Assembly (NCBI GenBank): GCA_041649175.1
Contig: JBAZNR010000003.1
Span: 207,449-271,448, forward strand
DNA length: 64,000 nt
Direction: 5' to 3'
Source of the DNA: Candidatus Omnitrophota bacterium
GTDB taxonomy: Bacteria > Omnitrophota > Gorgyraeia > Zapsychrales > JBAZNR01
Part shown: positions 6,527 through 24,602 of the stretch, one piece after another
Numbering within the stretch: position 1 is the first letter of the stretch
Layout: each line of letters starts with the position of its first letter
Translations under genes and position numbers: made by a program
Notes under the pieces: generated by a model
Database searches by the model: none
What the model was told of the DNA's origin: nothing
What the model saw: the letters and a program-made list of their open reading frames with translations, nothing else

Positions 6527-6538
6527 TTGGAGAGAAAA

Positions 6539-9982: not shown

Positions 9983-9986
9983 TCTC

Positions 9987-10550
9987 ATGAAAAAAAATAT
10001 TTTTAGTTTCGGATTGTTGTTTGCAGCGGTGGCAACGCTTATATTCTTAGGGAGTGCCTTGGCACAGGACCAGGAGGAGCCGCAACGCTTGACACAAGAG
10101 GAATTTGCGGTTGAGTTGGTGCGTCAAATGCGCATGGATCAATTGTTGCCAACGGCGGCGTTGCCGAGCGACTGCGTGGAATTGTTAGATCGCATCGGGA
10201 TCGCGCCGCTAAAAGGATGGAACCATAAAGCCTTTTTAACGCGAGAAGAATATTTAGTGATCATGGCCAAGGCTCATGGAAGAGAAGGCATTGTCCATGA
10301 AAAGGCTGTAAGCGTCGAAGAGAAAAACAGGGAAGTTATTAATGTTAAGTGGCAAGAGGCGCAACAGAAGTCCGGACAGTGGTTGTCTTTGGATGAACTG
10401 CTAAATAATCGCGAATATTTTCCTCAAGGCGCGCCGAAAAGTCCCTATGGCGTAAAATATAAAGACGCCAATGGTGACCATAAAGTTGACCCCTTGTTTT
10501 TACCGATCGCTGACTTAATAAAAATGACAGAGATTTTCTCGTCACGTTGA
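9987..10550 (+). CDS. Secreted hypothetical protein
   Basis: Signal peptide ending 'ALAQD'; no recognisable domain. Confidence 0.4.
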   Translation: MKKNIFSFGLLFAAVATLIFLGSALAQDQEEPQRLTQEEFAVELVRQMRMDQLLPTAALPSDCVELLDRIGIAPLKGWNHKAFLTREEYLVIMAKAHGREGIVHEKAVSVEEKNREVINVKWQEAQQKSGQWLSLDELLNNREYFPQGAPKSPYGVKYKDANGDHKVDPLFLPIADLIKMTEIFSSR

Positions 10551-10566
10551 TAAAATTGAGCTAACT

Positions 10567-11049
10567 ATGAAGAAATTATCCGTTTTAATTGCTTTAGTGT
10601 TTATCTTGACCGGCTGTGCCCGCGTAACCGAAGTAACTAAAGCGCTTTGGGGCTCTTCGACGAGGGCTCTTGAAGATTCCCGCGTTGATGCTATTTCAAA
10701 AACCTTTCCGTGCTCTTTCGATGATTCCTTTAATGAGGTTTTAAAGATTGCGGCCGCCGGTGTTCCCGCTCCCGTTTTAACCGATGCGGATGACGATGCC
10801 AACGCCAACGCTAGCGTGAGCGCTGAAGAAGTGAAGCTGACAGTTTTTATTAAAGACCGGAAGCGAAGCCGTATTGTCCTGATGAATATTCCTAATAGTA
10901 TTCCAACGACCGAAGTTGGGGTTTTTTTCTTGAGCCTTGGCCCGAGCGAAACAAAAATTGAAATTGCTTCGCTGAGCCCATCAGCTAAAACGACCGCTGC
11001 AGAAATATTATTCTCAAGGCTAAGCCAGGCATTTCCCGCTATCAAATAG
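10567..11049 (+). CDS. Lipoprotein, hypothetical
   Basis: Lipobox 'ILTGC' after an N-terminal hydrophobic segment. The + strand is preferred over the overlapping antisense ORF 10542-11045. Confidence 0.5.
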   Translation: MKKLSVLIALVFILTGCARVTEVTKALWGSSTRALEDSRVDAISKTFPCSFDDSFNEVLKIAAAGVPAPVLTDADDDANANASVSAEEVKLTVFIKDRKRSRIVLMNIPNSIPTTEVGVFFLSLGPSETKIEIASLSPSAKTTAAEILFSRLSQAFPAIK

Positions 11050-11056
11050 AAAACTT

Positions 11057-11326
11057 ATGGTTAGAGTTGATATTTTGATCCAACCAAGCCAAGATTGCTC
11101 GCAGACAGAAAAAGCGATACGGGTTGCCTCGAAAATCGCCAATGTTCCGGTCCAGGTCAATAAAACAAGTAAATTTGCAGAGTATGCTCATTGCGCTATT
11201 AATCCGTCTCAAACGCCGATCATTATTATAAGCGGGCATGTTGAATTTGCCGGCCGAACGCCTGAAGTTGATATTGTAGCGAAGAAATTAGTCGAATATA
11301 ACCGTCAGTCAAATCCAAACTTTTAG
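11057..11326 (+). CDS. Small thioredoxin-fold-like hypothetical protein (ArsD-like architecture?)
   Basis: 89 aa with a beta-alpha-beta pattern 'VRVDILIQPSQDCS...PIIIISGHVEFAGRTP'; single Cys, no CxxC. Confidence 0.25.
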   Translation: MVRVDILIQPSQDCSQTEKAIRVASKIANVPVQVNKTSKFAEYAHCAINPSQTPIIIISGHVEFAGRTPEVDIVAKKLVEYNRQSNPNF

Positions 11327-11334: not shown

Positions 11335-11850
11335 ATGATCGAACACGAACTTCTTTTTTTAGGTTTACTGATGCGCGGTCCAAAACATGGCTACGAAATT
11401 AAACGCCAGATCGAAGACGAATTATTTCCATTTATCGGCTTAAAGATCAAATCTATCTATTATCCTCTAAAGAAAATGGAAGAATTAGGTTTGGTGAATA
11501 AAGATGTCGGGCGGGAAGGGAAATGGCCGGAAAAATTTGTTTACAGCATCACGCCAAAAGGCGAAAAGATCTTTAATCACCTGATCAATGAAAGCTTTTT
11601 ATCTATCGAAAGGCCGTATTTTAACGTTGATTTGGCGCTATATTTCTTGCAATACGTTGACCGGAAAATTGCCTGGCGCAGATTGAAAGCCAGGGTTATT
11701 CTTTTGAGGAGAATTCGCCGCGACTTAGAGGGAATGAAATCAACCATCAAATCAGCCGATGTTCATCTCCAGATCATCTTGGAACACGAGTTAGATCTAG
11801 TGACCGCAGAAATAAAATCCATCGACCGCCTTATTGATACTCTCGAATAG
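11335..11850 (+). CDS. PadR-family transcriptional regulator
   Basis: N-terminal winged helix 'GPKHGYEIKRQIEDE...YYPLKKMEELGLV' typical of PadR; C-terminal coiled-coil extension. Confidence 0.7.
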   Translation: MIEHELLFLGLLMRGPKHGYEIKRQIEDELFPFIGLKIKSIYYPLKKMEELGLVNKDVGREGKWPEKFVYSITPKGEKIFNHLINESFLSIERPYFNVDLALYFLQYVDRKIAWRRLKARVILLRRIRRDLEGMKSTIKSADVHLQIILEHELDLVTAEIKSIDRLIDTLE

Positions 11851-11974
11851 TTCATCCAAACCCTACCTTTTCAGCTCCTTTATATATAAGTATTTATCTG
11901 TAATATTTTCTTGACAAAGGGGAATTGCGTATTAAAATCAGACTAGTAAAATTTAACTATTTAGGGGGTTTTCT

Positions 11975-13498
11975 ATGAAAGTTAAGCAATTGCTAGAGGA
12001 TAGAGCGCTGGTTTTTGCTCAAAAACCGGCGGTTATCTTCAAAAATAACATAATTACCTTCAGCCAGCTGCGCGATAATGTCTTTAAGCTAGTCGACGCG
12101 CTTAAAGCCTGCGGTGTTTCCAAAGGTGATAAAGTTGCTATTTTTTTGCCAAATTGCCCGGAATATGTGTACAGCTATTTAGCTCTTTTTTCGTTAGGCG
12201 CGGTCGTTGTTCCTCTTGATTTTATGTTAAAGATTGATGAGTTAACGGCGTGTTTAGATCATTCTGAAACCAAGTTTTTGATCGCCAAGCAAAATAATGA
12301 TGTTCTTCTTCGCGATGTCCAAAATAATGTTTCCAGCTTGAGCAAAATTATTGTTCTGGGCGAAGAAATTCCCGGAACGATCTCATTCGAGAGAATTGTT
12401 TCATCGGCAAAAGCTCAGGCGCCGGCCGTTGATGTTAATGACCAAGACCCGTCGCTGATTATGTATACGTCCGGAACAACCGGAAAGCCAAAGGGAATTT
12501 TGCTTAACTATCGTCATCTCAACGGTTCTCCGAAGGCGATGGAACATTTTGTAGATTTGTCCGACAAAGATGTGAAATTATCGGCGCTTCCGCTTAGCCA
12601 TATCGCCGGGCTTATTTATATTCAAAATTGCCTGATGTTCGGGATCACGTTAATTTTAATGGAACGGTTTCATCCCGTGGAATTCTTGAAAAATGTGGAA
12701 CAATACAAGGTTACATGTTTTCATGTTGTACCGGCGATGTATACGGCATTTTTGATGTTAAAAGAAATTGAGAAATTTAACTTATCTTCTTTGCGCTGGA
12801 TCGTTGTTTTTGGCGCACCTAGTTCTCCGGAGTTGTTGCGCCGTTTTCACCAGTATTGCCCTAACGCGCGTTTTCTAAACGGCTGGGGTATGACCGAAAC
12901 CTGTCCGCCTAATACCGTAACGCCTTTAGGAAGCGATAAAATTGAAAGCGTGGGCAAGCCTTCGCCGCATTGTGAGATTAAAATTGTTAATGAAAATGAT
13001 ATTGAAGTTAAATCCACAGAAATTGGCGAAGTTGTTATTCGCGGCTGGGTGGTGATGGACGGATATTATAAAGATCCGGAAACGAACAAAGAACTCATCC
13101 GTAACGGTTGGTTTCATACGGGTGATCTGGGGCGGTTTGACCAAGAAGGATACTTGTATATCGTCGGACGCAAGAAAGAGATGATCAAAGTCGGCGGACA
13201 AATTGTTTACGCGCCGGAAGTGGAAGCGGCTTTGCATAAACACGCGGCCGTTTTTGAAGTGGCGGTTGTCGGAATTCCTGATCAGCTGCGTGGAGAAGCG
13301 GTGAAGGCATTTGTTTCTTTGAAAGAAAAGGGAAGCGTTTCGGCGGAAGACTTACGTTATTTCGCGCGTGAGCATTTGGCGCATTTTAAAGTTCCGCATG
13401 AGATTGAAATTTTAGATGTTTTGCCAAAGAATAGAACGGGGAAGATCGATAAAGAACTATTAAAGAGAGGATTAGACAATGTCAGAAATGAAGCGTGA
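11975..13498 (+). CDS. AMP-dependent synthetase/ligase (acyl-CoA or aryl-CoA ligase)
   Basis: AMP-binding motif 'YTSGTTGKPKG'; A8-like 'GWFHTGDLGRFDQEGYLYIVGRKKEMIK'; C-terminal 'PKNRTGKI'. Confidence 0.8.
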   Translation: MKVKQLLEDRALVFAQKPAVIFKNNIITFSQLRDNVFKLVDALKACGVSKGDKVAIFLPNCPEYVYSYLALFSLGAVVVPLDFMLKIDELTACLDHSETKFLIAKQNNDVLLRDVQNNVSSLSKIIVLGEEIPGTISFERIVSSAKAQAPAVDVNDQDPSLIMYTSGTTGKPKGILLNYRHLNGSPKAMEHFVDLSDKDVKLSALPLSHIAGLIYIQNCLMFGITLILMERFHPVEFLKNVEQYKVTCFHVVPAMYTAFLMLKEIEKFNLSSLRWIVVFGAPSSPELLRRFHQYCPNARFLNGWGMTETCPPNTVTPLGSDKIESVGKPSPHCEIKIVNENDIEVKSTEIGEVVIRGWVVMDGYYKDPETNKELIRNGWFHTGDLGRFDQEGYLYIVGRKKEMIKVGGQIVYAPEVEAALHKHAAVFEVAVVGIPDQLRGEAVKAFVSLKEKGSVSAEDLRYFAREHLAHFKVPHEIEILDVLPKNRTGKIDKELLKRGLDNVRNEA

Positions 13499-14231
13499 TA
13501 TTCATTTAACCGGAAAAGACTTAATGGGCATGGTTCAGCTTCGTCCAAGCGATATTGGAAAATATGCCATCGTTCCCGGGCCCAAAGAGCGGCTGGATAG
13601 CTTGCTTAAAAAGATCGAAAATCCGGTTAAGAATTTTTCTTTTATGGAATATACGATGTATACCGGAATGCATGCCGGAACAAAAATTACCGCGATCAAT
13701 GGCGGACGTTTTTCGGCAGATACGGCGATTACGACGGAAATTCTGTGTAACGCCGAAGCGCAATATATGATCCGCATCGGAAGCTGTGGTGTTTTACGCG
13801 AAGATATTAAGGTCGGAGATTTGATCGTTGCGGACAGTGCTTTGCGTGGTGACGGCGTAACGCCGTATTATGTGGATAGCAATTTTCAGCCCCAGGCGGA
13901 TAGCGCGGCAACAAAAACACTGATCGATGTTGCCAAGCAGTCGGGCTTAAATGTCCATACGGGTAAAGTTTGGTCGACGGATGCGATTTTGCGCGAGACA
14001 AAAGACGTGGTCAACGGCGCTATTAAGAAAGATGCGATCGCGGTAGATATGGTCACGTCGGTTTTCTTAACGCTGGCTCAACTTTATAAAGTGCGGGCTG
14101 TCGCGATTTTAGCAGTAAGTGACAACATTATTACCGGCGAAATGGGATTCTTAAATCCCGGTTATTATATGGCGGAAGGGGCGATGATCTCCATCGCCTT
14201 AAATTGGGTTAAGAAACTCGAGAATAAATAA
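13479..14231 (+). CDS. Nucleoside phosphorylase, PNP/UDP family 1 (purine/uridine/MTA-type)
   Basis: 'IRIGSCGVL...GDLIVADSALRGDG' phosphorylase core; 250 aa; lies upstream of MtnA/MtnB-like genes. Confidence 0.6.
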   Translation: MSEMKRDIHLTGKDLMGMVQLRPSDIGKYAIVPGPKERLDSLLKKIENPVKNFSFMEYTMYTGMHAGTKITAINGGRFSADTAITTEILCNAEAQYMIRIGSCGVLREDIKVGDLIVADSALRGDGVTPYYVDSNFQPQADSAATKTLIDVAKQSGLNVHTGKVWSTDAILRETKDVVNGAIKKDAIAVDMVTSVFLTLAQLYKVRAVAILAVSDNIITGEMGFLNPGYYMAEGAMISIALNWVKKLENK

Positions 14232-14234
14232 TTC

Positions 14235-15203
14235 ATGAAAGAATCTCCACTATTTTGGCCGGTGCAGTTTAAAGGAAGTTATTTTCTCGTTTTAGACGAG
14301 ACATTGATTCCCAAAAAACTTCACTATGTAAAAGTGGATAGCGTCAAAGCGGCGGTGGACGTTATCCGTCAGATGAAGACGCGCGCCTTTGGACAGTTTT
14401 TGGTTGTATTAAGCACATTTTTGGTTGTTCTTAAAAAAAGCGAGAAAAAAGACTCTGGGCAGCTTTTTGAAGCTCTTCAAAAAGCTGCCCAAGCCCTAAA
14501 CGCCAGCCGTCCGACTTTTCCGTTTTCTGAAGTGACGGGAATGGTTTTGCATTGGGCCAATCAAGCTCTTCAAGAAAAAAAAGATTTGGTATCGTTTTTG
14601 GAAAAGAATATTAACGGATTTTTATCCGGAATTCGCGCACGTCGTTTGGAACGAGTAAATCGTATTGCCGAATTAATGAAAGAGGGAAGTCGTGTTTTAA
14701 CACATTGTAATGTGAGCGGTGAGCTCGCCATGGCAGCATCCATTTGTCAGGAGCAGAAAAAACAAATTAGCTTTTTTGCTACAGAAACGCGTCCTTTTTT
14801 ACAAGGTGCTAAATTAACGTGTTGGGAACTGCAAAGAATAGGCGCTGACGTGACGTTGATCGCTGATAATGCCATCGGAACTTTGTTCGGCAATCACCTG
14901 ATCGATATGGTGATCGTCGGCTCTGATCGTTCCTGCGCTAACGGAGATTTTGCCAATAAGATCGGAACATATCAAATCGCTGTTTTGGCCAAAGAATTCA
15001 ATGTTCCGTTTTATGCCTTAACTCAGCCGTCGAATAAAATTCCCAAAGGCGACGATATTCCTATTGAAATTCGCGATGAGAAAGAATTATTAGAATTTAA
15101 CCGTAAGCGCATTGCCCCAAAAGCAGTGAAAGGTTTTTATCCGGGATTTGATGTCGTTACGCGCGATTTTATTAAAGAGGCCATTGCCATCAATGTTAAT
15201 TAA
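14235..15203 (+). CDS. mtnA: 5-methylthioribose-1-phosphate isomerase-like (MtnA/eIF-2B family)
   Basis: 'VLTHCNVSGELA', 'TETRPFLQGAKLTCWEL', 'VIVGSDRSCANGDFANKIGTY', C-terminal 'YPGFDVVT' are hallmarks of the eIF2B/MtnA fold. Confidence 0.65.
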   Translation: MKESPLFWPVQFKGSYFLVLDETLIPKKLHYVKVDSVKAAVDVIRQMKTRAFGQFLVVLSTFLVVLKKSEKKDSGQLFEALQKAAQALNASRPTFPFSEVTGMVLHWANQALQEKKDLVSFLEKNINGFLSGIRARRLERVNRIAELMKEGSRVLTHCNVSGELAMAASICQEQKKQISFFATETRPFLQGAKLTCWELQRIGADVTLIADNAIGTLFGNHLIDMVIVGSDRSCANGDFANKIGTYQIAVLAKEFNVPFYALTQPSNKIPKGDDIPIEIRDEKELLEFNRKRIAPKAVKGFYPGFDVVTRDFIKEAIAINVN

Positions 15204-15675
15204 TAGTAAGCGTTCTTGCATTTTGTTGCATGGATTAATTCGCGATGAATTCTTGAAAGGTCTTCTCCAAGAAAAAGCGGAAAGTATTGTGGTTTTGGAA
15301 GGGCGGCCACATTTGTCCGGAGCGAAAATATTATGCGCGAAACTTCTTAAAAATAAAATCACACCAACGCTAATCAGTGACAATATGAGTGGTTTTCTTT
15401 TCTTTAAAGATTGCGTAAAGGAAGTTTGGCTGGCGTATCAGGAGAAAAATGAACAAGGCGCGCTGTGTGATTGTGGGGGGCTTATCTTAGGTGTTCTGGC
15501 AAAACGTCATGGCGTTTCGCTGCGCCTGTTTCCATCTGGGCGCCGCCAGGATCTTATGGCTAAGGAAAGGGATATCTTTTATTTTAACAAAATGCGTGTC
15601 GCGCCCAAAGGCGTCAAGGGGTATGTACCGCTTTTAGAATGGGTTCCTAATGAATATATTACGAAAGCTAATTAA
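15148..15675 (+). CDS. Truncated MtnA/eIF-2B-like paralog (C-terminal half only)
   Basis: Aligns with the C-terminal half of the preceding gene ('EGRPHLSGAKILCAKLL...TLISDN', 'RVAPKGVKGYVPLLEWV'); overlaps the previous gene by about 55 nt. Confidence 0.4.
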   Translation: MMSLRAILLKRPLPSMLINSKRSCILLHGLIRDEFLKGLLQEKAESIVVLEGRPHLSGAKILCAKLLKNKITPTLISDNMSGFLFFKDCVKEVWLAYQEKNEQGALCDCGGLILGVLAKRHGVSLRLFPSGRRQDLMAKERDIFYFNKMRVAPKGVKGYVPLLEWVPNEYITKAN

Positions 15676-16684
15676 TCCTATGAATAAAATCAAACAATTA
15701 AAGCAAGAGATCATCGAGATTGGAAAACTCATGTGGGATAAAAATCTCGCGACGGGTTTAAACGGAAATATCAGCGCGCGCGTTGAAACGGACAAGATCC
15801 TTTTAACGGCGCGCGGAACTTGCCTTGGAAAACTTAAAGAAAATGAACTTCTTTTAATGAACTTAAAAGGAGAGGTCTTAGAGCCGGGAACAGCGTCCAG
15901 CGAAAAATTATTACACATCGAGATCTATAAGAATTTTCCGGAAGTCACGGCCATTGTTCATACACATACATCGTATACAAACGGATTTTTTGCGGTGAAT
16001 AAAACCCTAACGCCTTCCACCTTTGAAACCAAATTTTATTTAGGGGAAGTGAAAGGCATTGACCAAACAACGCCGTCTGTCACGGATGCCGCGCCGGTGA
16101 TCGATGGGCTAAAAAGCAACAATATCGTTGTTTTACGCAATCACGGAACGGTGGCGATGGGAAAAAGTCTCTTTGATTGCTTTCTGCTCATTCAAGCTTT
16201 AGAAGAAGCGATCATTGTCGATAGCGTCAGCCGTTTATATCAGTTGAATTCGGTTTCTTCTCAGGGTTCAAGTGCAAAGGCGCCAGCGCAATCGTTAGCC
16301 CAAGAAAAGAAATATAAATTATTTTCCCAGGAACAAGTTGATGAAATTGTGCGGCTCATCAATGGCGATCAGGTTTTAAAAGACCTAGGGAAGAAAACCC
16401 AGATGAATATGGATTTGGCGGTTAAATTGAATGAAACCGGCGAGGTATTTAGTTTTTCATTTCAAAATGGACAAATCGCCAAAGTGGGCAGTGATGAAAA
16501 CGCGGAATTCTTGATCTCGGCTTCCAAAGATATTTGGCGGGCTGTTTTTAACCGCGAAATAGATCCCTTTGTGGCGACGACGCAAAAGAAAATGAATTTG
16601 CGCGGGGATTTCGCCAAGATCTCGCGTTGGTATGCGCCTTGCAGCCGCATTTTTGAACTTTGGCAAAGAGCACCTGTGGAATAA
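15650..16684 (+). CDS. Class II aldolase/adducin-domain protein (MtnB/Ald2-like) fused to a C-terminal SCP2-like domain
   Basis: 'LNGNISARV', 'AIVHTHTSY', 'VVLRNHGTVAMG' aldolase-II motifs; SCP2-like tail of about 110 aa; start may be the ATG at 15680. Confidence 0.6.
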   Translation: MNILRKLINPMNKIKQLKQEIIEIGKLMWDKNLATGLNGNISARVETDKILLTARGTCLGKLKENELLLMNLKGEVLEPGTASSEKLLHIEIYKNFPEVTAIVHTHTSYTNGFFAVNKTLTPSTFETKFYLGEVKGIDQTTPSVTDAAPVIDGLKSNNIVVLRNHGTVAMGKSLFDCFLLIQALEEAIIVDSVSRLYQLNSVSSQGSSAKAPAQSLAQEKKYKLFSQEQVDEIVRLINGDQVLKDLGKKTQMNMDLAVKLNETGEVFSFSFQNGQIAKVGSDENAEFLISASKDIWRAVFNREIDPFVATTQKKMNLRGDFAKISRWYAPCSRIFELWQRAPVE

Positions 16685-16691
16685 AAGAATT

Positions 16692-18191
16692 ATGAAAACA
16701 GTAAGCGACATCAGCCAATTCGAATTATTTATAGACGGAAAGAAACAAAAACCGTTATCAGGGCGGTATTTTGACAGCATTAGTCCGTCGACAGGCGAGA
16801 TCGTCGCCAGATTGGCCGATGGTAATGTGGATGACGCGAAAGCGGCTATTGCCGCGGCCAGGCGAGCTTTTGACGCGGGAATTTGGACAAAATGTTCCGT
16901 TCCTGAGCGAGGAAAGTATTTGATTCGCATTGCCGAACTTATTCGGGAGAACGCAAAAGAGCTAGCGCAATTAGAATGCATTGATACCGGAAAGACAATT
17001 AAACAAACAACATTTATTGACGTTCCGACTTGCGCGGATACGTTTGAATATTTTGGAAAAATTGAACAGCCGTTACAGGAGAGCTATTTGGCTGTTGCCG
17101 CGCCGGTCAAAAGCTTGATCCGACGTGAACCCGTTGGTGTTGCGGGTTGTGTTATTCCATGGAATTATCCCTTGATCATGGCGGCTTGGAAAATTGCTCC
17201 GGCATTGGTTTCCGGGAATGCGATCGTTTTTAAGCCGGCACAATTAGCCAGTGTTTCTATTATGCGATTAGCCGAGATCATTGAACATGCCGGATTGCCT
17301 AAGGGTGTTATTAATTTTGTTTCCGGAAGCGGACAAAGTGTGGGAAGCGAGCTAGCACGAAACGCGGATGTGGATATGATAAATTTTACCGGAAGTACGG
17401 CAACGGGTCAGGAAATTATGCGACTCGCCGCCTCCAATACAAAAAAAATCTGTCTGGAGCTCGGCGGCAAGTCGCCGAACATCATTTTCGCCGATTGCGA
17501 CTTAGAAGCAGCCGTGGGTGGGGCTATGTCAGCGATCTTTATGAATCAAGGGCAAATGTGCACGGCAGGTTCGCGGCTTTTATTAGAAGATAAAATTTAT
17601 GATGAATTCATGGCCGCGCTTATCAAAAAAACCAAAGCCTTGAAGATCGGCAACAGTATTAATTACGATACGGATTTTGGTCCACTCATTAGCGCGCAAC
17701 AAAGAGAGCAGGTTTTAAATTTCATTAAGATCGGCATTAAAGAAGGCGCAAAATTATCGTGTGGCGGGAAAATCCCGGAATCAGCTGATTTAAAAAACGG
17801 ATTTTTCTTAGAGCCGGCCATTTTTGAAAATGTGAAGAATTCCATGACGATCGCGCAAGAAGAGATTTTCGGGCCGGTTTTGGCAGTCATAAAATTTTCC
17901 GGCGAAGAGGAAGCCGTAAAAATCGCCAATGATACAAAATACGGCTTAGCCGCATGTGTATGGACAAAAGATCCCCAAAAAGCAAATACGGTCGCGCGCC
18001 AACTTCGTTGCGGGACAGTGTGGATCAATACGTATGGCGGATTTTATAATGAAGCGCCGTTTGGCGGATACAAACAAAGCGGTTTTGGCAGAGAATTAGG
18101 TACCGACGGGCTTTTAGAATACAGCCAAGTCAAACATATTTGCGCTGATCAAACGCCCGGCGGAAGGCCTTTAGTGTCGGGGTGGTTTTGA
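16692..18191 (+). CDS. NAD(P)-dependent aldehyde dehydrogenase
   Basis: ALDH motifs 'VIPWNYPL', 'ELGGKSP', catalytic Cys context 'QGQMCTAGSR', 'EEIFGPV'. The ATG at 16692 is chosen rather than the overlapping upstream start. Confidence 0.8.
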   Translation: MKTVSDISQFELFIDGKKQKPLSGRYFDSISPSTGEIVARLADGNVDDAKAAIAAARRAFDAGIWTKCSVPERGKYLIRIAELIRENAKELAQLECIDTGKTIKQTTFIDVPTCADTFEYFGKIEQPLQESYLAVAAPVKSLIRREPVGVAGCVIPWNYPLIMAAWKIAPALVSGNAIVFKPAQLASVSIMRLAEIIEHAGLPKGVINFVSGSGQSVGSELARNADVDMINFTGSTATGQEIMRLAASNTKKICLELGGKSPNIIFADCDLEAAVGGAMSAIFMNQGQMCTAGSRLLLEDKIYDEFMAALIKKTKALKIGNSINYDTDFGPLISAQQREQVLNFIKIGIKEGAKLSCGGKIPESADLKNGFFLEPAIFENVKNSMTIAQEEIFGPVLAVIKFSGEEEAVKIANDTKYGLAACVWTKDPQKANTVARQLRCGTVWINTYGGFYNEAPFGGYKQSGFGRELGTDGLLEYSQVKHICADQTPGGRPLVSGWF

Positions 18192-18294
18192 CTGAACAGC
18201 CCGAGAGTAGTTGGCATATTTTTATTAACAAACATTGTTCGATTGATAAAGAAGCTTCGAAAAACTTAACACAAACAAAAAGGGGGAAGTCAGC

Positions 18295-19776
18295 ATGAAA
18301 GCTTTATTCTTAACACCACCGTTAAAAGCGTGGGATTCCCACGGATTTCATAGAGCGGCCAATCAAATGCACGCGCAATTGGCGGCGTATCTGCGTGAAA
18401 AGAAAATTTGCGATGTGGCGGTTTTAGATTGCCGCGCTTTTGATATGGATTGGGACGGCATGATGAAAAAAGTTGCCGAAATAAAACCTGATTTTGTTTT
18501 TGTCGGCGAACTGCTTCATTCGACTTGCGGTGCTGCCGTTATTTGGTACTTTAATGAGGGCTTACGCCTCATCAAGGAAAAATATCCCAATGTGAAAACA
18601 ATTGCCGGCGGGCTTTGGTATTCCGGAGATTATGAGCGGCAAATGCGCCTTAACCCCACCATTGATTACATTATGCTCGGGGAAGCCGAATTGACTTTAG
18701 AAGAGCTTATCGTCAATATTAAATCCGGAAATAAAAAGAAAGAGCGCGATATTGACGGTTTAGTTTCTCGCGCAGCAGACGGAACGATTGCTCTAGGTCC
18801 GCATCGCGATCTTATTCCCGACTTAAATGTTCTTCCAATGCCGGCTTATGACCTATTCCCGATGGATAAATACGTTGGGCACACATATTGGAAACCGTTC
18901 GCGGAACTGATGACTTCGCGTGGCTGTCCGGGGAAATGCCATTTTTGTTATGAGTGGGCGCTGTATGATTCGCGCACAGCGACGAAAGATTTTACGTCAT
19001 GGCGTGGATTAAAAGGAAAACGTATCGTGGATGAATTAGATATCTTAGAAAAGCAGTACGGAATTACCACGATCGTTTTTCAGGATGATGCTTTTAATAC
19101 CGATACGCAAGCCATGATCGAGTTTTGTGAAGAAAAACTTAAGCGCGGCAATAAAATTGATTGGGTTTGCCTTGGTCGCGCCGACCAGTGGATCGCTCAA
19201 CACGATATTTTGCCTTTGATGAAGAAGGCCGGTTTATTCTTGGCGCTCACAGGTGTTGAGGTTGAAGACGACCTAAGTTTGCACAAAACAGGCAAGGGTG
19301 TGACGATTGATCAAATCAAGAAAACGATCAAGATCTTGCGCGATCAGGATATAGGATCGGTCGGAACAGTTCTGGTCGGCCTTAAAGAAGATACGGAAGC
19401 CAAGATCAAGGAACGCCTTCGCGTGGCGGATGAAATTGATGCGGATATTTTCGCGCTGGATTATCTAACGCCTGTTCCTAATTCGCCCGACTGGCGCTAT
19501 GCCATCAAGAAGGGCTGGTTTGATCCGGACAAGATCGACTTAAGGGTTTGGGATTTTCAGCACCCCGTCATTCCGACGGATTTTCTTTCCATCGAAGAGG
19601 TGGGGCGTTTAGGCGCTTGGTGTATGCGGGAATATTATTCCAAACCGGAACGCATTCATCGCATCATGGACAGCAATTACGATATGAAGGTTAAATTGTG
19701 CGTGAAAGACTTTATGGATAATATTGCCAAATGGGAGAAGAATTCCCGTGTTGGCGCACAAGCGGCTGCTGTTTAA
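18295..19776 (+). CDS. B12-binding-domain radical SAM enzyme (class B)
   Basis: N-terminal cobalamin-binding-like domain and the radical SAM cysteine motif 'CPGKCHFC'; 493 aa. Confidence 0.65.
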   Translation: MKALFLTPPLKAWDSHGFHRAANQMHAQLAAYLREKKICDVAVLDCRAFDMDWDGMMKKVAEIKPDFVFVGELLHSTCGAAVIWYFNEGLRLIKEKYPNVKTIAGGLWYSGDYERQMRLNPTIDYIMLGEAELTLEELIVNIKSGNKKKERDIDGLVSRAADGTIALGPHRDLIPDLNVLPMPAYDLFPMDKYVGHTYWKPFAELMTSRGCPGKCHFCYEWALYDSRTATKDFTSWRGLKGKRIVDELDILEKQYGITTIVFQDDAFNTDTQAMIEFCEEKLKRGNKIDWVCLGRADQWIAQHDILPLMKKAGLFLALTGVEVEDDLSLHKTGKGVTIDQIKKTIKILRDQDIGSVGTVLVGLKEDTEAKIKERLRVADEIDADIFALDYLTPVPNSPDWRYAIKKGWFDPDKIDLRVWDFQHPVIPTDFLSIEEVGRLGAWCMREYYSKPERIHRIMDSNYDMKVKLCVKDFMDNIAKWEKNSRVGAQAAAV

Positions 19777-19799
19777 AAAAGAATCAAAACGGAAAGAAT

Positions 19800-20075
19800 A
19801 TGATGAATAGCCAAGAGCAAGTTATCTGGGAAGATGAGTCGTTAAAGAAGTTCAATAAAATGATCGCGCGCATTCCACTTTTTCATCGGGAGATCGCGCG
19901 TAAAGTTGCTTTTAAAAAAGCAGAGTTAAACGCGAAAGAACGCGGCTCAAAAAAGGTTGAAGAGCCCGACATTATCAAGGCGTTTTTCTCGGAAGTTCCA
20001 ATGACATTTTATAGCTTGATGATCAAACTTTTAGAAGACGCGGGTTTTGATTATAAGCGTTATGTGGCGAAGTAA
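19800..20075 (+). CDS. Small protein with a PCP_red-like domain (often paired with B12-rSAM/BchE-type enzymes)
   Basis: About 90 aa helical protein beginning MMNSQEQ with SD 'ggaaag'; similarity to PCP_red recalled from memory only. Confidence 0.3.
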   Translation: MMNSQEQVIWEDESLKKFNKMIARIPLFHREIARKVAFKKAELNAKERGSKKVEEPDIIKAFFSEVPMTFYSLMIKLLEDAGFDYKRYVAK

Positions 20076-20526
20076 GTTGGAACTTAATCATCACTCTATT
20101 TTTATTTCGGCGCCGATCGATGCGGTTGGCGCACAAATTGTTCTTTGGGGCGAGGCGTCGTGGTGGCCCAAAAGATGTTCGATGAAATTTATTCCCGAAG
20201 ACGGTGGGGAAATTAAAGTCGGAAAAAAATTTAAGCAAAAAGTTTTATTTCCCTCAGCGCCAAGCTGGACGGTTTGCGTGACCAGGCTTATTTTAAATCG
20301 GGAGATCGAACGCACATTTTTAGACGGGATCTTTAGCGGAAAAGAAACCGTGACGACAAAAAATGTTGCGCAAGGAACACAAGTTGATTATGTAATGGAT
20401 TTCAAGATCAACGGAAGTTTCAATCAAGTTTTGTGGCGAATTATTTTTCGGCGGCTTCATGACCGTAATATTAAGCTGATCTTGAGAAGTTTAAAAGATT
20501 TTATGGAAAAAAAGAGTTTGAAATGA
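20047..20526 (+). CDS. Hypothetical protein, possibly SRPBCC (Bet v1-like) fold
   Basis: About 155 aa with a beta-rich pattern; weak; overlaps the preceding ORF. Confidence 0.3.
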   Translation: MIISVMWRSKLELNHHSIFISAPIDAVGAQIVLWGEASWWPKRCSMKFIPEDGGEIKVGKKFKQKVLFPSAPSWTVCVTRLILNREIERTFLDGIFSGKETVTTKNVAQGTQVDYVMDFKINGSFNQVLWRIIFRRLHDRNIKLILRSLKDFMEKKSLK

Positions 20527-21524
20527 TAATTGCGGTTATTGGAGCGGGGGCGATCGGTTCGGTGGTAGCGGCTTATTTGCATAAAACGGGAGTTGATGTT
20601 GTTCTCGTCGGCCGCGAAAACCAAGTGAATGCCATCAAACGGTCGGGTTTGAAGATAAACGGTGTGCGCGGCGAAGAAATATTTCGCGTTCCGGCATTAA
20701 CACGTTTAGATAAAAAATATGATCTAACGATCTTTACGGTTAAAACCCAAGACCTAGAAGATGCTTACGCGCAAAATAGTGAGTTTCTTTTAGAAAATTC
20801 TTTAATTCTTTCTACTCAAAACGGTGTTCAGGCGGACAATATTTTAAGCGGCCATTTTGAGAAAGAGAATATGCTCAGCAGTATTGTGATGTTTGGCGCG
20901 ACGTATATTGAGCCGGGTGTTGTTACTTTTAATTTTGAAGGCGATTGGATCTTAGGAAAGCCGTTTATTTCGGTGGACAAAGAAGTTCGCGATATTGCCG
21001 AGATCCTAAAGAAAGCATTTACGGTCGCGGTCTCGACGAATATCGTCGGGATGAAATGGCTTAAACTTTTTGTCAATTTCAATAATTGTCTTCCGGCTTT
21101 GATCGGAAAATCTATGCAAGAAACTTTTACCGATATGGATTTTTGTAAATTAAGCGTCATGCTTCTTAAAGAAGGTATCGCGGTCACAGAAAAAGTCGGC
21201 ATAGAACTTGTATCTTTACCGTCTTTTCCGGCGGAAAGAATTTTTGGATTGACCAAAATGCCCTTAGACCAAGCGGCGGGCATCATGAATAAAACCTTAA
21301 CCGGTTTAAGCAAAGAGCCTTTATACGGCTCCATCTTGCAGAGCATCTTGCGTCAAAAGGCAAGCGAGATCGATTTTATTAATGGGGAAGTTGTTTTATT
21401 AGGAAAACAAGTCCAATCAATGGCGCCATTAAACTTGAAAGTTGTTGATCTTGTCCATAGGGTTGAGCGTGAGCGGCGTTTTTTTACACCGGAAGAAATA
21501 AAGAAAGAATTTAGTCTAAATTAA
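20523..21524 (+). CDS. 2-dehydropantoate 2-reductase family (ApbA/PanE) NAD(P)H oxidoreductase
   Basis: Rossmann motif 'IAVIGAGAIGSVVAAYL'; ApbA-like length and C-terminal helical domain. Confidence 0.6.
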   Translation: MIIAVIGAGAIGSVVAAYLHKTGVDVVLVGRENQVNAIKRSGLKINGVRGEEIFRVPALTRLDKKYDLTIFTVKTQDLEDAYAQNSEFLLENSLILSTQNGVQADNILSGHFEKENMLSSIVMFGATYIEPGVVTFNFEGDWILGKPFISVDKEVRDIAEILKKAFTVAVSTNIVGMKWLKLFVNFNNCLPALIGKSMQETFTDMDFCKLSVMLLKEGIAVTEKVGIELVSLPSFPAERIFGLTKMPLDQAAGIMNKTLTGLSKEPLYGSILQSILRQKASEIDFINGEVVLLGKQVQSMAPLNLKVVDLVHRVERERRFFTPEEIKKEFSLN

Positions 21525-21554
21525 AAAACATCATCGATCGGAGAATTGTCCTTA

Positions 21555-22817
21555 ATGGAAAAACGAAGAGTTGTGATAACGGGAGTTGGGATCGTTTCGC
21601 CTAATGGCGTCGGAAAAGAAGCGTGTTGGAAGGGGATGATCAACGGCGTTTCAGCGATAAAACGCGTGACAGAATTTGATGTCTCCATGTTCAATACCAA
21701 GATCGCCGCGCAAGCTAGGGATTTTGATCCGCTAAAATTAGGGCTCACATCAGATGAGGCAATTCGCATGGACCGGTATGTGCAATTTGCTATGGTCGGC
21801 GCGCGGATGGCCTTAGAAGACGCCAAATTAGACTTAAGCAAAGTTAATCGTGAGCGTATGGGCGTTTCTTTAGCGAACGCGATCTGCGGAACAAAATATA
21901 TGGAAGAAGAATTCGCGCTGGTGACCGATAACGGAAAAAATCCTATTAATCCGGCGATGGTTCGCCCGCATCTTTATGACGCTTCCATGTTCAATACGCC
22001 TTCTAGCGAAATTTCTACCAAATATAATTTAATGGGAATTTGTAATACGATCTCAACCGGGTGTACCGCCGGAACCGATTCGGTGGGATTTTCTTTTGAA
22101 GCCATTCAAGACGGAGAAGTTGATGTCATGATCGCGGGTGCCAGCGAAGCGCCGATCACGCCCATCACTTTTGGCGCTTTTGACGTGGTCAATGTCCTGT
22201 CGGTCCATAATGATGAACCGGAAAAAGCATCGCGCCCTTTTGACTCGAAACGAAACGGCTTTGTCATTTCCGAGGGTTGCGGGCTTGTTATCTTGGAAGA
22301 ATTAAATCACGCGTTAAAACGTGGAGCAAAAATTTATTGCGAAGTGGTTGGTTTTGGTACGACCTGTAACGCCTATCATATGACCGACTTGCCTGCGGAA
22401 GGCGAGGCCATGACGGATTCCATTAATTTAGCCATGGAAGATGCGGGCATTAAACCTAGAGATATTGACTATATTAACGCGCACGGTTCATCGACAAAAC
22501 AAAATGATGTTTTTGAAACCAATGCCTACAAAGCATCGCTGGGCGAATATGCTTACAAAATTCCTATCAGTTCTTTAAAGTCCATGATCGGCCACCCCCT
22601 CGCCGGCGCTAATGGCGTTGAGATCGCGGTTTGCGCGCTTATTTTTGAGCGTAATATTTTACCGCCGACGATCAATCAAGAATCTCCTGACCCGCAGTGT
22701 GATCTGGATTATGTTCCCAATGTGGCACGCGAAAAGAAAATAAACTGTATGCTAAAAACAAGTTCCGGATTTTCCGGCGTTCATTCTTCGATGGTTTTTA
22801 GGAGGTATAATGAATAA
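21555..22817 (+). CDS. Beta-ketoacyl synthase, active KS (KS-alpha-like)
   Basis: Active-site Cys 'ISTGCTAGTDSVG'; His motifs 'INAHGSSTKQND' and 'SMIGHPLAGANG'; SD 'ggagaa' upstream. Confidence 0.8.
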   Translation: MEKRRVVITGVGIVSPNGVGKEACWKGMINGVSAIKRVTEFDVSMFNTKIAAQARDFDPLKLGLTSDEAIRMDRYVQFAMVGARMALEDAKLDLSKVNRERMGVSLANAICGTKYMEEEFALVTDNGKNPINPAMVRPHLYDASMFNTPSSEISTKYNLMGICNTISTGCTAGTDSVGFSFEAIQDGEVDVMIAGASEAPITPITFGAFDVVNVLSVHNDEPEKASRPFDSKRNGFVISEGCGLVILEELNHALKRGAKIYCEVVGFGTTCNAYHMTDLPAEGEAMTDSINLAMEDAGIKPRDIDYINAHGSSTKQNDVFETNAYKASLGEYAYKIPISSLKSMIGHPLAGANGVEIAVCALIFERNILPPTINQESPDPQCDLDYVPNVAREKKINCMLKTSSGFSGVHSSMVFRRYNE

Positions 22818-24057: not shown

Positions 24058-24248
24058 AAAAATTATATCGTTCAGAAACAGATAAGAAAATAGCCGGTGT
24101 TTGCGGCGGCCTTAGCGAATACTTTGACATTGACCCGGTGATCTTTCGCATTCTTTTTGCGGCATTGTTTTTTGTGGGTGGGTTTGGGCTTTTGCTTTAT
24201 ATCATCATGTGGTTTGCGGTTCATTCAAAATCAAATATAAAAAATTAA
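24054..24248 (+). CDS. PspC-domain small membrane protein
   Basis: 'IAGVCGGLSEYFDIDPVIFRILF' is a canonical PspC motif, followed by one TM segment. Confidence 0.6.
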   Translation: MKKLYRSETDKKIAGVCGGLSEYFDIDPVIFRILFAALFFVGGFGLLLYIIMWFAVHSKSNIKN

Positions 24249-24278
24249 AACACAAATTGCTTAAAAGAGGAGAGAAAG

Positions 24279-24536: not shown

Positions 24537-24540
24537 CTAT

Positions 24541-24600: not shown

Positions 24601-24602
24601 AA

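Follow-up and report, generated by a model that had tools for sequence, protein, structure and literature searches.

Why would an Omnitrophota genome keep a nucleoside phosphorylase, a sugar-phosphate isomerase, an aldolase and an aldehyde dehydrogenase (ALDH) beside a radical SAM enzyme: to recycle by-products of SAM chemistry or to supply a biosynthetic cluster? The initial annotation of the 64-kb stretch of DNA analyzed here (the window) favored recycling and placed five consecutive genes at 13479-19776. All five were recovered at these positions, and they and the other cluster features given below lie on the forward strand. They are not consecutive, since a half-size IF-2B paralog sits between the isomerase and the aldolase, and the proposed unit was too narrow: an AMP-ligase upstream and a ketosynthase/chain-length-factor/acyl carrier protein/cyclase (KS/CLF/ACP/cyclase) set downstream also belong to it.

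Gene content and order of the cluster

The cluster is headed by a PadR-family regulator (11335-11850; Pfam PadR, 43.5 bits), which lies directly 5′ of the ligase gene in most Omnitrophota loci. The best sigma-70-like match in the region (TTGACA-16-TAAAAT, 11911-11938, 11 of 12 positions) lies 37 nt upstream of the ligase start and is a consensus match only. Next come a FadD-like AMP-dependent acyl-CoA/ACP ligase (11975-13498; Pfam AMP-binding, 291 bits, plus AMP-binding_C), a PNP_UDP_1 phosphorylase (PNP; 13479-14231; Pfam, 119 bits), an IF-2B/MtnA-like isomerase (14235-15203; Pfam IF-2B, 169.5 bits), and the half-size paralog (open reading frame 15148-15675, probable ATG at 15193; Pfam IF-2B, 33 bits). 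These are followed by a class II (Zn) aldolase fused to an SCP2 domain (open reading frame 15650-16684, NCBI start 15680), an ALDH (open reading frame 16632-18191, likely ATG at 16692; Pfam Aldedh, 590 bits), and the B12-binding radical SAM enzyme (18295-19776; Pfam B12-binding and Radical_SAM). Start and stop codons overlap by 20 nt between ligase and PNP and by 11 nt between the isomerase and its paralog, suggesting translational coupling at both junctions. The overlooked features of the locus were thus three: the dead half-size IF-2B gene, the ligase overlapping the PNP start, and the KS/CLF/ACP/cyclase set.

The downstream genes begin with a small DUF2621/PCP_red-like protein (19800-20075; Pfam DUF2621, 31.9 bits; start inferred from where orthologue alignments begin), which is kept even where the radical SAM gene is missing, and a variably present small protein (20047-20526) that is probably SRPBCC/START-like; the window copy has no Pfam match, and its ortholog in locus L058 weakly matches Polyketide_cyc2. 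An ApbA/PanE-family, ketopantoate-reductase-like oxidoreductase (20523-21524; Pfam ApbA and ApbA_C; TIGR00745, 167 bits, over the cutoff of 141) precedes a ketosynthase (21546-22817) that is predicted to be active from its Pfam match and its alignment with the housekeeping FabF, in which the Cys-His-His triad is intact. Its partner is a CLF-like dead ketosynthase (22810-24057; Cys to Arg, His to Asp, His to Asn). A dedicated acyl carrier protein (24279-24536; Pfam PP-binding, 36 bits; LGIDS motif), a PF04199 "putative cyclase" (24585-25406) that is kept after KS/CLF in related loci, and an SRPBCC polyketide cyclase/dehydrase-like protein (26481-26981) follow, and the tail of the cluster holds an MFS transporter (27116-28189) and an SDR ketoreductase-like gene (28182-28955). 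The housekeeping fab operon is separate, at 50596-55246.

Among related loci pooled across collections, with duplicates between collections left in, the order ligase-PNP-isomerase-half-size paralog-aldolase/SCP2-ALDH occurs in all 83 that span ligase to ALDH, a recurrence far beyond chance. In Omnitrophota, every related locus that is long enough has the full order from PadR through ALDH and, usually, radical SAM to KS, CLF, ACP and cyclase, and KS is present in 59 of the 59 loci with enough downstream sequence.

Phosphorylase, isomerase and half-size paralog

The PNP is not MtnP/MTAP-like. NCBIfam places it closest to uridine phosphorylase (102 bits) and DeoD (97 bits), in both cases far under the cutoff, and there was no match to the MTAP model; it is a predicted divergent member of the hexameric (DeoD/Udp-like) type with an altered sugar site. 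Arg38, Arg99, Ser102 and Ser214-Asp215 are invariant in 92 orthologues, so that the Ser-Asp pair of purine specificity is in place and, of three phosphate arginines, two remain. Glu181 of Escherichia coli PNP is replaced by Val192 (in "DMV"), an invariant Val in this subfamily, and Arg43 (E. coli PNP numbering) by Met56/Glu57. Met18, likewise invariant, aligns with a His of the Streptococcus pyogenes uridine phosphorylase structure 3qpb, which we take to be the 5′-OH-binding residue. Characterized family members conserve a ribose-binding Glu and a phosphate Arg that this PNP lacks, so it may use another sugar or work in another way.

The gene at 14235-15203 encodes a putative full-length MtnA-like sugar-1-phosphate isomerase of the IF-2B family. 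Its scores against NCBIfam MtnA models (231 bits, subfamily cutoff 271, and 208 bits) fall below the equivalog cutoffs, it just clears the eIF-2B_rel subfamily (186.1 versus 185.85), and the R15P isomerase model gives 122 bits only, far under the MtnA-model scores. The best PDB matches are the MtnA structures 1t9k and 2yrf, and the MtnA "THCN" Cys and "GSDR" Asp are kept. The half-size paralog covers Pfam profile positions 130 to 270, the Rossmann-like C-terminal domain only, and is 31% identical to residues 174 to 316 of the full-length protein. It lacks the catalytic Cys and Asp, with GSDR changed to AYQE. The paralog occurs in all 83 loci, and the two proteins form a single fusion of 505 to 523 amino acids in L059 and L148 to L151; it is probably a noncatalytic partner of the isomerase.

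Aldolase-SCP2 fusion, ALDH and ligase

The C-terminal SCP2-like domain that had been noticed on the aldolase is real by several measures. Pfam scores for Aldolase_II (127.5 bits) and SCP2 (23.6 bits) both exceed the gathering score, the family profile matches the SCP2 structures 1wfr (E = 3.6e-7) and 2cx7 (7.5e-7) as well as the SCP2-like domain of sec-alkylsulfatase, and in an AlphaFold2 model (pLDDT 88.5) two domains fold well, with a disordered linker between them (residues 204 to 222). The fusion is strictly conserved. The catalytic domain keeps its Glu and all three Zn histidines, and N40, S42, E85, H89, H104, H106, E126 and H165 do not vary among 25 members, whose identity falls as low as 28%. 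The family profile aligns over the full domain with FucA (115 bits) and DrdA (6btd, 105 bits), whereas MtnB dehydratases align over the N-terminal half only; Foldseek gives E of about 5e-13 against DrdA, to which sequence identity is only about 24%. Sequence and fold searches also rank YgbL (3-oxo-tetronate-4-P decarboxylase) among their top matches, with NovR weaker. Grouping with fuculose-1-P aldolases had been named as evidence against a shunt; a FucA match is indeed seen, but this comparison does not discriminate, because DrdA, a characterized 5-deoxyribulose-1-P aldolase with about the same score, is itself FucA-like. Acetaldehyde or methylthioacetaldehyde as products would need no SCP2 domain and do not explain its presence.

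As the initial annotation proposed, the ALDH is positioned to oxidize the released aldehyde. It is a predicted NAD(P)-dependent hydrolytic enzyme of betaine-aldehyde-dehydrogenase-like type (NCBIfam BADH, 599 bits versus a cutoff of 669; CoA-acylating MMSDH model, 271 bits only) with the catalytic motifs ELGGKSP and GQMCTAGSR, and this type argues for flux from aldehyde to acid. The ligase scores 467 bits against the long-chain-fatty-acid-CoA ligase subfamily PRK06187 (cutoff 476). Its closest solved structures are FadD5, FadD13, feruloyl-CoA synthetase and MenE, with acetyl-CoA synthetase lower, so that it lies nearer to medium/long-chain and aromatic acid ligases than to acetyl-CoA synthetase.

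The radical SAM enzyme and related loci

The radical SAM protein, which carries a CxxxCxxC motif, is predicted to be BchE/HpnJ-like and orthologous to neither (BchE, 176 bits versus 481; HpnJ, 130 versus 578). Its gene is present in 67 of 71 Omnitrophota loci; in L020, L107 and L115 the ALDH is followed directly by the next gene, and L137 likewise lacks it. Because the module persists in these three or four loci, it is not there to serve the neighboring radical SAM enzyme, contrary to the salvage link first proposed. A second, soil clade (Methylomirabilota, Binatia and Acidobacteriota) encodes PNP, a fused isomerase and half-size paralog, aldolase/SCP2 and ligase, then a HetI-like PPTase; no radical SAM gene was found within 10 kb of these Methylomirabilota-type modules. 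Neither KS nor ACP was found within 10 kb either, and priming of a polyketide synthase (PKS) therefore cannot be the general role.

Across arrangements, the module always occurs with a FadD-like ligase and near carrier-protein machinery, namely KS/CLF/ACP in Omnitrophota and the PPTase in the soil clade. This weakens a plain salvage reading, since a salvage shunt needs neither. The ligase directly adjoins the aldolase/SCP2 gene in independent arrangements (L059, L063, L060/L061 and L148 to L151). As aldehyde-oxidizing partner, the window and L064 have ALDH, and L060 and L151 have a Mo aldehyde oxidoreductase nearby; this exchange fits an oxidation step that is required but replaceable.

Proposed route

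We consider that there is an even chance that these genes form an extended DHAP-shunt-type nucleoside-cleavage module ending in an activated acid, not a discarded aldehyde; the module is probably a biosynthetic feeder within a polyketide/lipid gene cluster rather than a simple recycling device. We infer its substrates, its products, which way flux runs and the transfer to ACP as follows. The DeoD-like phosphorylase would split a purine 5′-deoxy or 5′-substituted nucleoside, most parsimoniously 5′-deoxyadenosine and/or 5′-methylthioadenosine (MTA), into base and sugar-1-phosphate. The isomerase with its catalytically dead partner would yield the ketose-1-phosphate, and the Zn-dependent aldolase would cleave this to DHAP and an aldehyde that the SCP2 domain may hold or hand on. 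ALDH would then form the acid, which the ligase would adenylate to acyl-AMP and thioesterify, feeding carrier-protein chemistry; in Omnitrophota the product would serve as primer for the KS/CLF/ACP system of the same cluster. That system does not strictly need a starter from outside, since a KS/CLF heterodimer whose partner is dead can prime itself by decarboxylating malonyl-ACP (preprint 10.64898/2026.05.19.726425). Of the original DHAP-shunt proposal, the enzyme logic from nucleoside through sugar-1-phosphate and ketose-1-phosphate to DHAP, aldehyde and acid is the most coherent reading. The salvage link to the radical SAM enzyme fails, the phosphorylase is not an MtnP ortholog, and plain salvage is weakened.

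Comparison with characterized systems

Several known systems share part of this logic. The DrdK/DrdI/DrdA pathway of Bacillus thuringiensis, attributed to Beaudoin et al. in 2018, reportedly disposes of 5-deoxyribose. Our aldolase domain matches DrdA (solved as 6btd/6btg, according to PDB titles) over its full length, and the isomerase family is common to both; here, however, the entry enzyme is a phosphorylase and not a kinase, the aldolase is only distantly similar and bears SCP2, and ALDH and ligase are extra. The DHAP shunt (MtnP or MtnN plus MtnK, MtnA and Ald2) of Rhodospirillum, Rhodopseudomonas and ExPEC E. coli likewise runs from a 5′-deoxynucleoside through 5-deoxypentose-1-phosphate and ketose-1-phosphate to DHAP and aldehyde; its isomerase is of the MtnA family and its class II aldolase is FucA-like (PMC10986504). 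It differs in having MtnP in place of a DeoD/Udp-like enzyme with an altered sugar site, in lacking the obligatory dead half-paralog and the SCP2 domain, in reducing or excreting the aldehyde where we propose oxidation and adenylation, and in not being set in carrier-protein biosynthetic contexts.

The fluoroacetate pathway of Streptomyces cattleya and Nocardia brasiliensis (FlA, FlB phosphorylase, isomerase, aldolase, aldehyde dehydrogenase) is the one characterized route that turns a 5′-substituted 5′-deoxyadenosine into a substituted acetic acid by such an enzyme series, its isomerase being MtnA-like and its aldolase fuculose-type (PMC3999930). The cluster shares this five-step logic to the acid, but its phosphorylase is of another type, ligase and KS/CLF follow the acid, and no fluorinase/chlorinase (DUF62) gene was found in the 64-kb window. 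In the HpnH/HpnG (adenosylhopane to ribosylhopane) and MqnE/MqnB (aminofutalosine) systems, a PNP-superfamily enzyme strips the base from a 5′-C-linked hydrophobic adenosine adduct (PMC13459092), and an SCP2 domain that binds lipid, carried by the enzyme two steps on, would suit such a substrate. The cluster PNP falls below the HpnG cutoff (42 bits versus 187), its radical SAM enzyme below the HpnJ cutoff, and no HpnH/MqnE-type radical SAM or squalene-hopene cyclase gene was found in the window or the soil-clade loci.

The downstream genes resemble type II PKS and KS-CLF systems outside actinobacteria in pairing an intact-triad KS with a triad-less partner and in having a dedicated ACP, PF04199 cyclase, SRPBCC proteins, SDR and AMP-ligase, but the active-site position of the CLF holds Arg and not Gln. 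Omnitrophica KS-CLF pairs are cataloged in PMC10132072, and an amxFabF heterodimer is described from anammox (preprint 10.64898/2026.05.19.726425). In our literature search, no described type II PKS or FAS-like cluster had a feeder made of nucleoside phosphorylase, isomerase and aldolase.

Alternative explanations

A self-contained housekeeping shunt that salvages or detoxifies 5′-deoxyadenosine and MTA to adenine, DHAP and acetaldehyde or methylthioacetaldehyde, and on to acetate or methylthioacetate, would make the position beside radical SAM and PKS-like genes incidental or convenient. Its enzyme logic is that of the published shunt (PMC10986504), its substrates are universal, which fits the lack of a dedicated substrate-making enzyme co-located in the soil clade, and a radical SAM gene adjoins most Omnitrophota modules. 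We nevertheless regard it as unlikely, given that the module stays where that gene is absent, that the PNP is not MtnP-like, that the SCP2 fusion is so strictly kept, that PadR/MarR-type regulators stand over the module, and that the link to the ligase and to PPTase or ACP/KS is constant. KO-assigned MTA phosphorylase occurs in 70 to 99% of class Gorgyraeia outside Pluralincolimonadales (preprint 10.64898/2026.06.07.730766); if that is a different gene, the cluster PNP would be a second, specialized enzyme.

The closeness of the PNP to general Udp/DeoD enzymes would also suit an ordinary nucleoside, with ribose-1-phosphate passing via ribulose-1-phosphate to DHAP and glycolaldehyde, then glycolate and a glycolyl-thioester, much as in the non-carboxylating pentose-bisphosphate route. 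The haloarchaeal ribulose-1-phosphate aldolase model does weakly match the window copy of the aldolase (55 bits) and the soil clade (72 bits), far under its cutoff of 300, but the isomerase is MtnA-like and not R15P-isomerase-like, no ribose-1-phosphate kinase or RuBP phosphatase is present, and the invariant Met at the 3qpb His position and Val at the position of the Glu that binds the ribose 2′/3′-OH disfavor a canonical ribonucleoside; this makes the route quite improbable. The slimmest chance belongs to the aldolase-like domain being no sugar-phosphate aldolase but a decarboxylase, dehydratase or oxygenase of the class II aldolase superfamily (like OtnC/YgbL, PhtC, NovR or MtnB) acting on an SCP2-held hydrophobic acid or polyketide intermediate, with PNP and IF-2B in another role. 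The YgbL and NovR matches are compatible with it, as are L060 and L061, which pair aldolase/SCP2 with ligase and lack PNP and IF-2B. Against it, PNP and IF-2B flank aldolase/SCP2 in both major clades (IF-2B immediately 5′ in L059 and L062), none of the FucA-type Zn and Glu residues varies, and an aldehyde-oxidizing enzyme accompanies aldolase/SCP2 in several arrangements.

Implications

If the activated-acid route that we prefer is true, the breakdown of SAM-derived nucleosides here extends to an activated fatty-type acid inside a polyketide/lipid cluster across the uncultivated phylum Omnitrophota.

Gene content and order of the cluster

A continuous run of genes on the forward strand occupies positions 11335-28955. 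It opens with a PadR regulator (11335-11850) and continues with six genes that we refer to as the module: a FadD-like AMP-ligase (11975-13498), a PNP_UDP_1 phosphorylase (PNP; 13479-14231), a full-length IF-2B/MtnA-like isomerase (14235-15203), a half-size IF-2B paralogue (ORF 15148-15675, probable ATG at 15193), a class II aldolase with a C-terminal SCP2 domain (ORF 15650-16684, NCBI start 15680), and an aldehyde dehydrogenase (ALDH; ORF 16632-18191, probable start 16692). Downstream lie a B12-binding radical SAM enzyme (rSAM; 18295-19776), a small DUF2621-like protein (from about 19800), a small protein that is probably SRPBCC-like (20047-20526), an ApbA/PanE-type reductase (20523-21524), a ketosynthase (KS1; 21546-22817) and its dead partner (KS2; 22810-24057), an acyl carrier protein (ACP; 24279-24536), a PF04199 cyclase (24585-25406), CorA (25533-26453), an SRPBCC protein (26481-26981), an MFS transporter (27116-28189), and an SDR (28182-28955). 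The initial annotation described five consecutive genes within 13479-19776 as a DHAP-shunt-like cluster salvaging methylthioadenosine (MTA) or 5'-deoxyadenosine (5'-dAdo) for the adjacent rSAM. ORF and domain assignments bear out all five genes and their positions; overlooked were the half-size IF-2B gene inside that interval and, just beyond it, the ligase and the ketosynthase, chain-length-factor-like (CLF) and ACP genes.

The CorA Mg2+ transporter gene splits the cyclase from the SRPBCC gene, an arrangement otherwise found only in L003 among 52 loci compared, and therefore probably entered the cluster as a lineage-specific insertion. Upstream of the PadR gene, the region 8771-11326 encodes a putative beta-barrel protein (weak BBP2_2 match), a thioredoxin-fold protein, and two proteins with signal-peptide or lipoprotein-like N termini and no Pfam match. 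In many related loci, a 160-amino-acid gene found here (10567-11049) is kept just ahead of PadR or no more than ∼1.5 kb away, and the cluster may therefore begin before its regulator. Farther upstream, a c-di-GMP-I-GGC riboswitch aptamer (6318-6411; 62.3 bits, over the gathering score) precedes a subtilase-family gene (6527-7279), which is followed by a FecR-domain protein. On the other side of the cluster, a bacterial rRNA operon (32372-37723) is directly followed by a MarR regulator, an outer-membrane efflux protein, and an AcrB-type RND pump (37967-43032).

A distinct phosphorylase subfamily

The PNP scores highest with the NCBIfam model for uridine phosphorylase (102 bits), closely followed by DeoD (97 bits). 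Neither score comes near its cutoff, and the MTA/SAH nucleosidase model (52 bits) also falls short. No NCBIfam model for MTAP, MtnP, or MtnK matches the PNP, a result that concerns orthology, activity on MTA or 5'-dAdo being a separate matter. The enzyme falls in the hexameric DeoD/Udp branch; among solved structures, its nearest relatives are DeoD-type PNPs of Bacillus and the uridine phosphorylase of Streptococcus pyogenes. Aligned to the Bacillus PNP, it retains the phosphate ligands Arg38, Arg99, and Ser102 along with Ser214-Asp215, a hallmark pair of purine-type catalysis. The sugar site is altered. The "EME" motif has become "DMV," with Val192 at the Glu position, which we take from established structures to correspond to Glu181 of Escherichia coli PNP, the residue that binds the ribose 2'- and 3'-hydroxyls. 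Met56/Glu57 stand in place of the intersubunit phosphate ligand Arg43, and Met18 occupies the position of an aligned N-terminal His in 3qpb (H-x6-D spacing), presumably the 5'-OH-binding His of uridine phosphorylases. The protein lacks the canonical contacts to both the ribose hydroxyls and the 5'-OH. Because these substitutions are invariant across 92 orthologues and common to a distant second clade (see below), the sequences identify a distinct subfamily, defined by loss of a residue conserved elsewhere in the family, and not a decayed copy.

A probable two-part isomerase

The full-length isomerase keeps the catalytic Cys ("THCN") and Asp ("GSDR"). Its best PDB matches are MtnA proteins (153 bits with Thermotoga maritima MtnA), and it scores under both MtnA equivalog cutoffs (208 versus 279 and 231 versus 271 bits), barely clears the eIF-2B_rel subfamily cutoff (186.1 versus 185.85), and is distant from the ribose-1,5-bisphosphate isomerase model (122 bits, cutoff 314). 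The half-size paralogue aligns with the Rossmann-like C-terminal domain of the isomerase at 31% identity, lacks both catalytic residues, and stands next to the full-length gene in every case. In the second clade (L059, L148 to L151), the two are fused into a single protein of 505 to 523 amino acids, Rosetta-stone evidence for joint function of the two separate Omnitrophota proteins. The half-size protein may be a pseudo-enzyme subunit; to our knowledge, none has been described for an MtnA-like isomerase.

An aldolase fused to an SCP2 domain

Across 25 family members, some as little as 28% identical, the aldolase domain keeps the FucA-type residues N40, S42, E85, H104, H106, and H165; E85 and the three Zn-binding histidines (H104, H106, H165) are invariant. 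HMM and profile scores stood in for a formal tree with Ald2, MtnB, and FucA reference sequences. The family profile matches the whole domain of FucA from Streptococcus pneumoniae (115 bits) and Thermus thermophilus (112 bits) and of Bacillus thuringiensis DrdA (6btd; 105 bits), whereas it aligns only its first 125 positions with an Aquifex MtnB-like protein and reaches 39 bits over the N-terminal third of human MtnB (4m6r). Conversely, MtnB models cover only residues 13 to 118 of the window aldolase (60 to 66 bits, cutoffs 137 to 226), and the Ru1P aldolase model scores 55 bits against a cutoff of 300. These full-domain versus partial matches assign the catalytic domain to the aldolase type and not the dehydratase type; the domain is about equally distant from FucA and DrdA, and the scores do not separate a FucA-like from a DrdA-like enzyme. 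Pfam finds no enolase-phosphatase or dioxygenase gene within the 64-kb window.

The SCP2-like domain noted originally at the C terminus is also genuine (Pfam SCP2, 23.6 bits; gathering score, 21.3). Profile searches match it to 1wfr (3.6e-7), 2cx7 (7.5e-7), the SCP2-like domain of a sec-alkylsulfatase, and human SCP2. AlphaFold2 (pLDDT 88.5) predicts a separate, confidently folded domain at residues 223 to 344 (block-mean pLDDT 80 to 97) after a disordered linker; a Foldseek search of the PDB with the whole model gave only aldolase-domain matches among the matches listed. The SCP2 domain is conserved to the same degree as the catalytic domain, and we found no literature combining "class II aldolase" with "SCP2."

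Aldehyde oxidation, acid activation, and carrier-protein genes

The ALDH scores 599 bits with a betaine-aldehyde-dehydrogenase-like model and only 271 with a CoA-acylating model, which assigns it to the hydrolytic type and sets the predicted direction from aldehyde to acid. A reverse, nucleoside-synthesizing direction is unlikely, as ALDHs of the hydrolytic type are irreversible. The ligase resembles medium/long-chain or aromatic acid ligases and not acetyl-CoA synthetase. KS1 has an intact Cys-His-His triad; KS2 carries Arg, Asp, and Asn at the same positions and is CLF-like. At the active-site position where CLFs carry a Gln associated with decarboxylative priming, the window protein has Arg, and so does its counterpart in L058, a more distant Omnitrophota-like locus. 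Together with the dedicated ACP (PP-binding, 36 bits), the active KS and its adjacent triad-less homologue make up a type II PKS-like set. KS-CLF pairs of "Candidatus Omnitrophica" have been catalogued and are uncharacterized (PMC10132072), and antiSMASH "ladderane"-type calls have been reported from Omnitrophota MAGs (PMC9902471); we found no literature on the combination of KS/CLF, rSAM, and nucleoside phosphorylase.

A separate housekeeping operon, plsX-fabH-fabD-fabZ/A-like-fabF, lies at 50596-55246. A histidine kinase gene follows it in the region 50596-59386, and then come genes for an amine-oxidase/phytoene-desaturase-like flavoprotein (56872-58293) and for a fatty-acyl reductase-like protein of the "male sterility" NAD_binding_4 type (58301-59386). 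These may form a second lipid-modifying set.

Conservation in Omnitrophota with and without the radical SAM gene

We compared the window proteins by tblastn and blastp with 144 related loci, pooled from collections without de-duplication. The conserved order is PadR-ligase-PNP-isomerase-half-size paralogue-aldolase/SCP2-ALDH-rSAM-DUF2621-(small)-ApbA-KS-CLF-(ACP)-cyclase-(SRPBCC-MFS-SDR), at 55 to 86% amino acid identity. Four genes separate ligase from ALDH in all 83 loci that have both ends, and the KS is present in each of the 59 genuine loci with >9 kb of downstream sequence. The entire cluster is also found in L058 at 46% identity, and an alignment-based metagenome scan recovered only close Omnitrophota relatives (56 to 68% identity). 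A Firmicutes locus, L053 (L053 to L056 match at 23 to 27% identity), was set aside as uninformative outgroup context, having AraD beside AraA. Several "uncultured Planctomycetales" records and L050 (CAWHLK010000043.1) carry the Omnitrophota-type cluster under "Planctomycetales" or "uncultured archaeon" labels, which are probably taxonomic mislabels; all genes of L050 contain numerous frame breaks, seen as fragmented tblastn matches, and the record is probably a low-quality long-read assembly.

The rSAM is present in 67 of 71 loci. It is cleanly absent from L020, L107, and L115, where the DUF2621 gene starts 6 to 14 nt after the ALDH (junctions at 12527-12541, 12551-12558, and 4870-4877 of the respective loci), and is missing from L137 as well. 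This Omnitrophota sub-lineage lacks the rSAM and the small SRPBCC-like gene and keeps all other cluster genes, an apparent natural knockout that could show what the rSAM contributes to the product. Retention of DUF2621 in loci without the rSAM led us to reject it as an rSAM accessory protein. The rSAM itself scores 130 bits with the HpnJ model (cutoff 578).

A second clade and other arrangements

When all 1.84 billion representatives were scanned (E < 1e-30), the search recovered ∼45 clusters with the aldolase-SCP2 two-domain architecture. One branch, with NCBI names in Methylomirabilota, "Candidatus Binatia," and Acidobacteriota (here, the soil clade), comprises 940 proteins (E < 1e-30); after 90% identity clustering, the Omnitrophota-type search yielded ∼640 proteins and the soil-clade search 940. 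The soil-clade operon reads MarR, Fe-S/CCG oxidoreductase, PNP, long IF-2B, aldolase/SCP2, ligase, small protein, and HetI-like phosphopantetheinyl transferase (PPTase). Its PNP has the same "DMV" signature as that of the window, and its FadD-like ligase belongs to the same NCBIfam subfamily. Neither a radical SAM gene nor a ketosynthase lies within 10 kb of the soil-clade module. L151 and L060 have a molybdenum aldehyde oxidoreductase near the module, and other variants pair aldolase/SCP2 with ALDH and ferredoxin (L064) or with the ligase (L063, L060/61). What regularly accompanies the SCP2-aldolase is therefore the ligase, first and foremost, along with the special PNP, the MtnA-like isomerase pair, and an aldehyde-oxidizing enzyme of variable type; the rSAM does not belong to this set.

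The Fe-S/CCG-domain oxidoreductase (TfrB/LdhH/GlpC-like; L148 6323-7546, L151 6488-7690) is the first operon gene, ahead of the PNP. The small protein directly 3' of the ligase (L148 12619-12978, L151 12522-12842, L060 12205-12516) is conserved, about 103 to 119 amino acids long overall and 106 to 119 in the loci with the compact operon, with the motif ENRxWIExF..GDLMHT...PHKTTVYEHPRTMI and no Pfam or NCBIfam match. We rejected it as a carrier protein, as it has no conserved Ser or Ppant attachment motif.

Proposed pathway and alternatives

From these enzymes we infer a five-step route. A purine 5'-deoxy or 5'-substituted nucleoside would undergo phosphorolysis, the resulting sugar-1-phosphate would be isomerized from aldose to ketose, and retro-aldol cleavage would give DHAP and R-CH2-CHO; the aldehyde would then be oxidized to R-CH2-COOH, and the acid adenylated and thioesterified. 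The most economical substrate would be a universal metabolite, 5'-dAdo (R = H) or MTA (R = SCH3), because no substrate-making enzyme accompanies the module in the soil clade. In Omnitrophota, an acetyl- or methylthioacetyl-thioester would prime KS/CLF. The chemistry first proposed for these genes appears right, but salvage on behalf of the neighboring rSAM is not supported, since the module is kept where that gene is absent (L020, L107, L115, L137, and the soil clade).

Steps 1 to 3 are those of the DHAP shunt (PMC10986504), and steps 1 to 4 are those of the fluoroacetate pathway (PMC3999930); unlike either, the module adds step 5 and a link to a PPTase or to ACP/KS/CLF. It also differs from the DHAP shunt in its entry enzyme, which is not of the MtnP type, and the cluster has no kinase, so the MtnN-plus-MtnK entry is absent. 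No match to fluorinase/chlorinase (DUF62, FlA/SalL) was found by Pfam among the window ORFs scanned. The window likewise does not hold the MtnB route of methionine salvage (MtnB with MtnC or MtnW/X, MtnD, and MtnE), and neither the R15P isomerase nor the Ru1P aldolase equivalog of the pentose-bisphosphate route is reached. Similarity to the hopanoid side-chain enzymes HpnG and HpnJ stays below equivalog level (the PNP scores 42 bits with HpnG, cutoff 187), and the window has no HpnH-like rSAM or squalene-hopene cyclase.

Several features fit a two-carbon product poorly: C2 aldehydes have no need of a lipid-carrier SCP2 domain, and the ligase type, the PNP sugar site, and the PadR/MarR regulators, whose usual ligands are hydrophobic or phenolic, are also misfits. 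These keep in play another reading, by analogy, in which the substrate would be a hydrophobic 5'-C-linked adenosine adduct. An enzyme encoded elsewhere and acting like HpnH or MqnE (PMC13459092) would form such an adduct by radical adenosylation, starting from an olefinic lipid or polyketide. The module would trim the ribose to leave only C5' and C4' on the chain, and the acid, longer by two SAM-derived carbons, would be activated; in Omnitrophota, KS/CLF would then elongate it. This would account for the conserved SCP2 domain, for Met in place of the 5'-OH-binding His, and for the FadD/steroid-acid-like ligase, and would mean that lipid biosynthesis draws two carbons from S-adenosylmethionine, a new use of it as a C2 donor. 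We nevertheless consider it improbable, because no adenosylating rSAM is co-located with the module at any locus examined.

If the proposed route from a universal nucleoside is correct, the DHAP shunt is more than a means of disposal or carbon scavenging, and a widespread, uncharacterized offshoot exists that has a phosphorylase subfamily of its own, an isomerase in two parts, and an aldolase fused to SCP2, turning the aldehyde half into an activated acid for carrier-protein biosynthesis. The module is present in at least four largely uncultivated phyla and, in Omnitrophota, invariably forms the start of a KS/CLF cluster. Five soluble enzymes would offer a testable approach to the chemistry of this phylum, which has hardly any cultured members.
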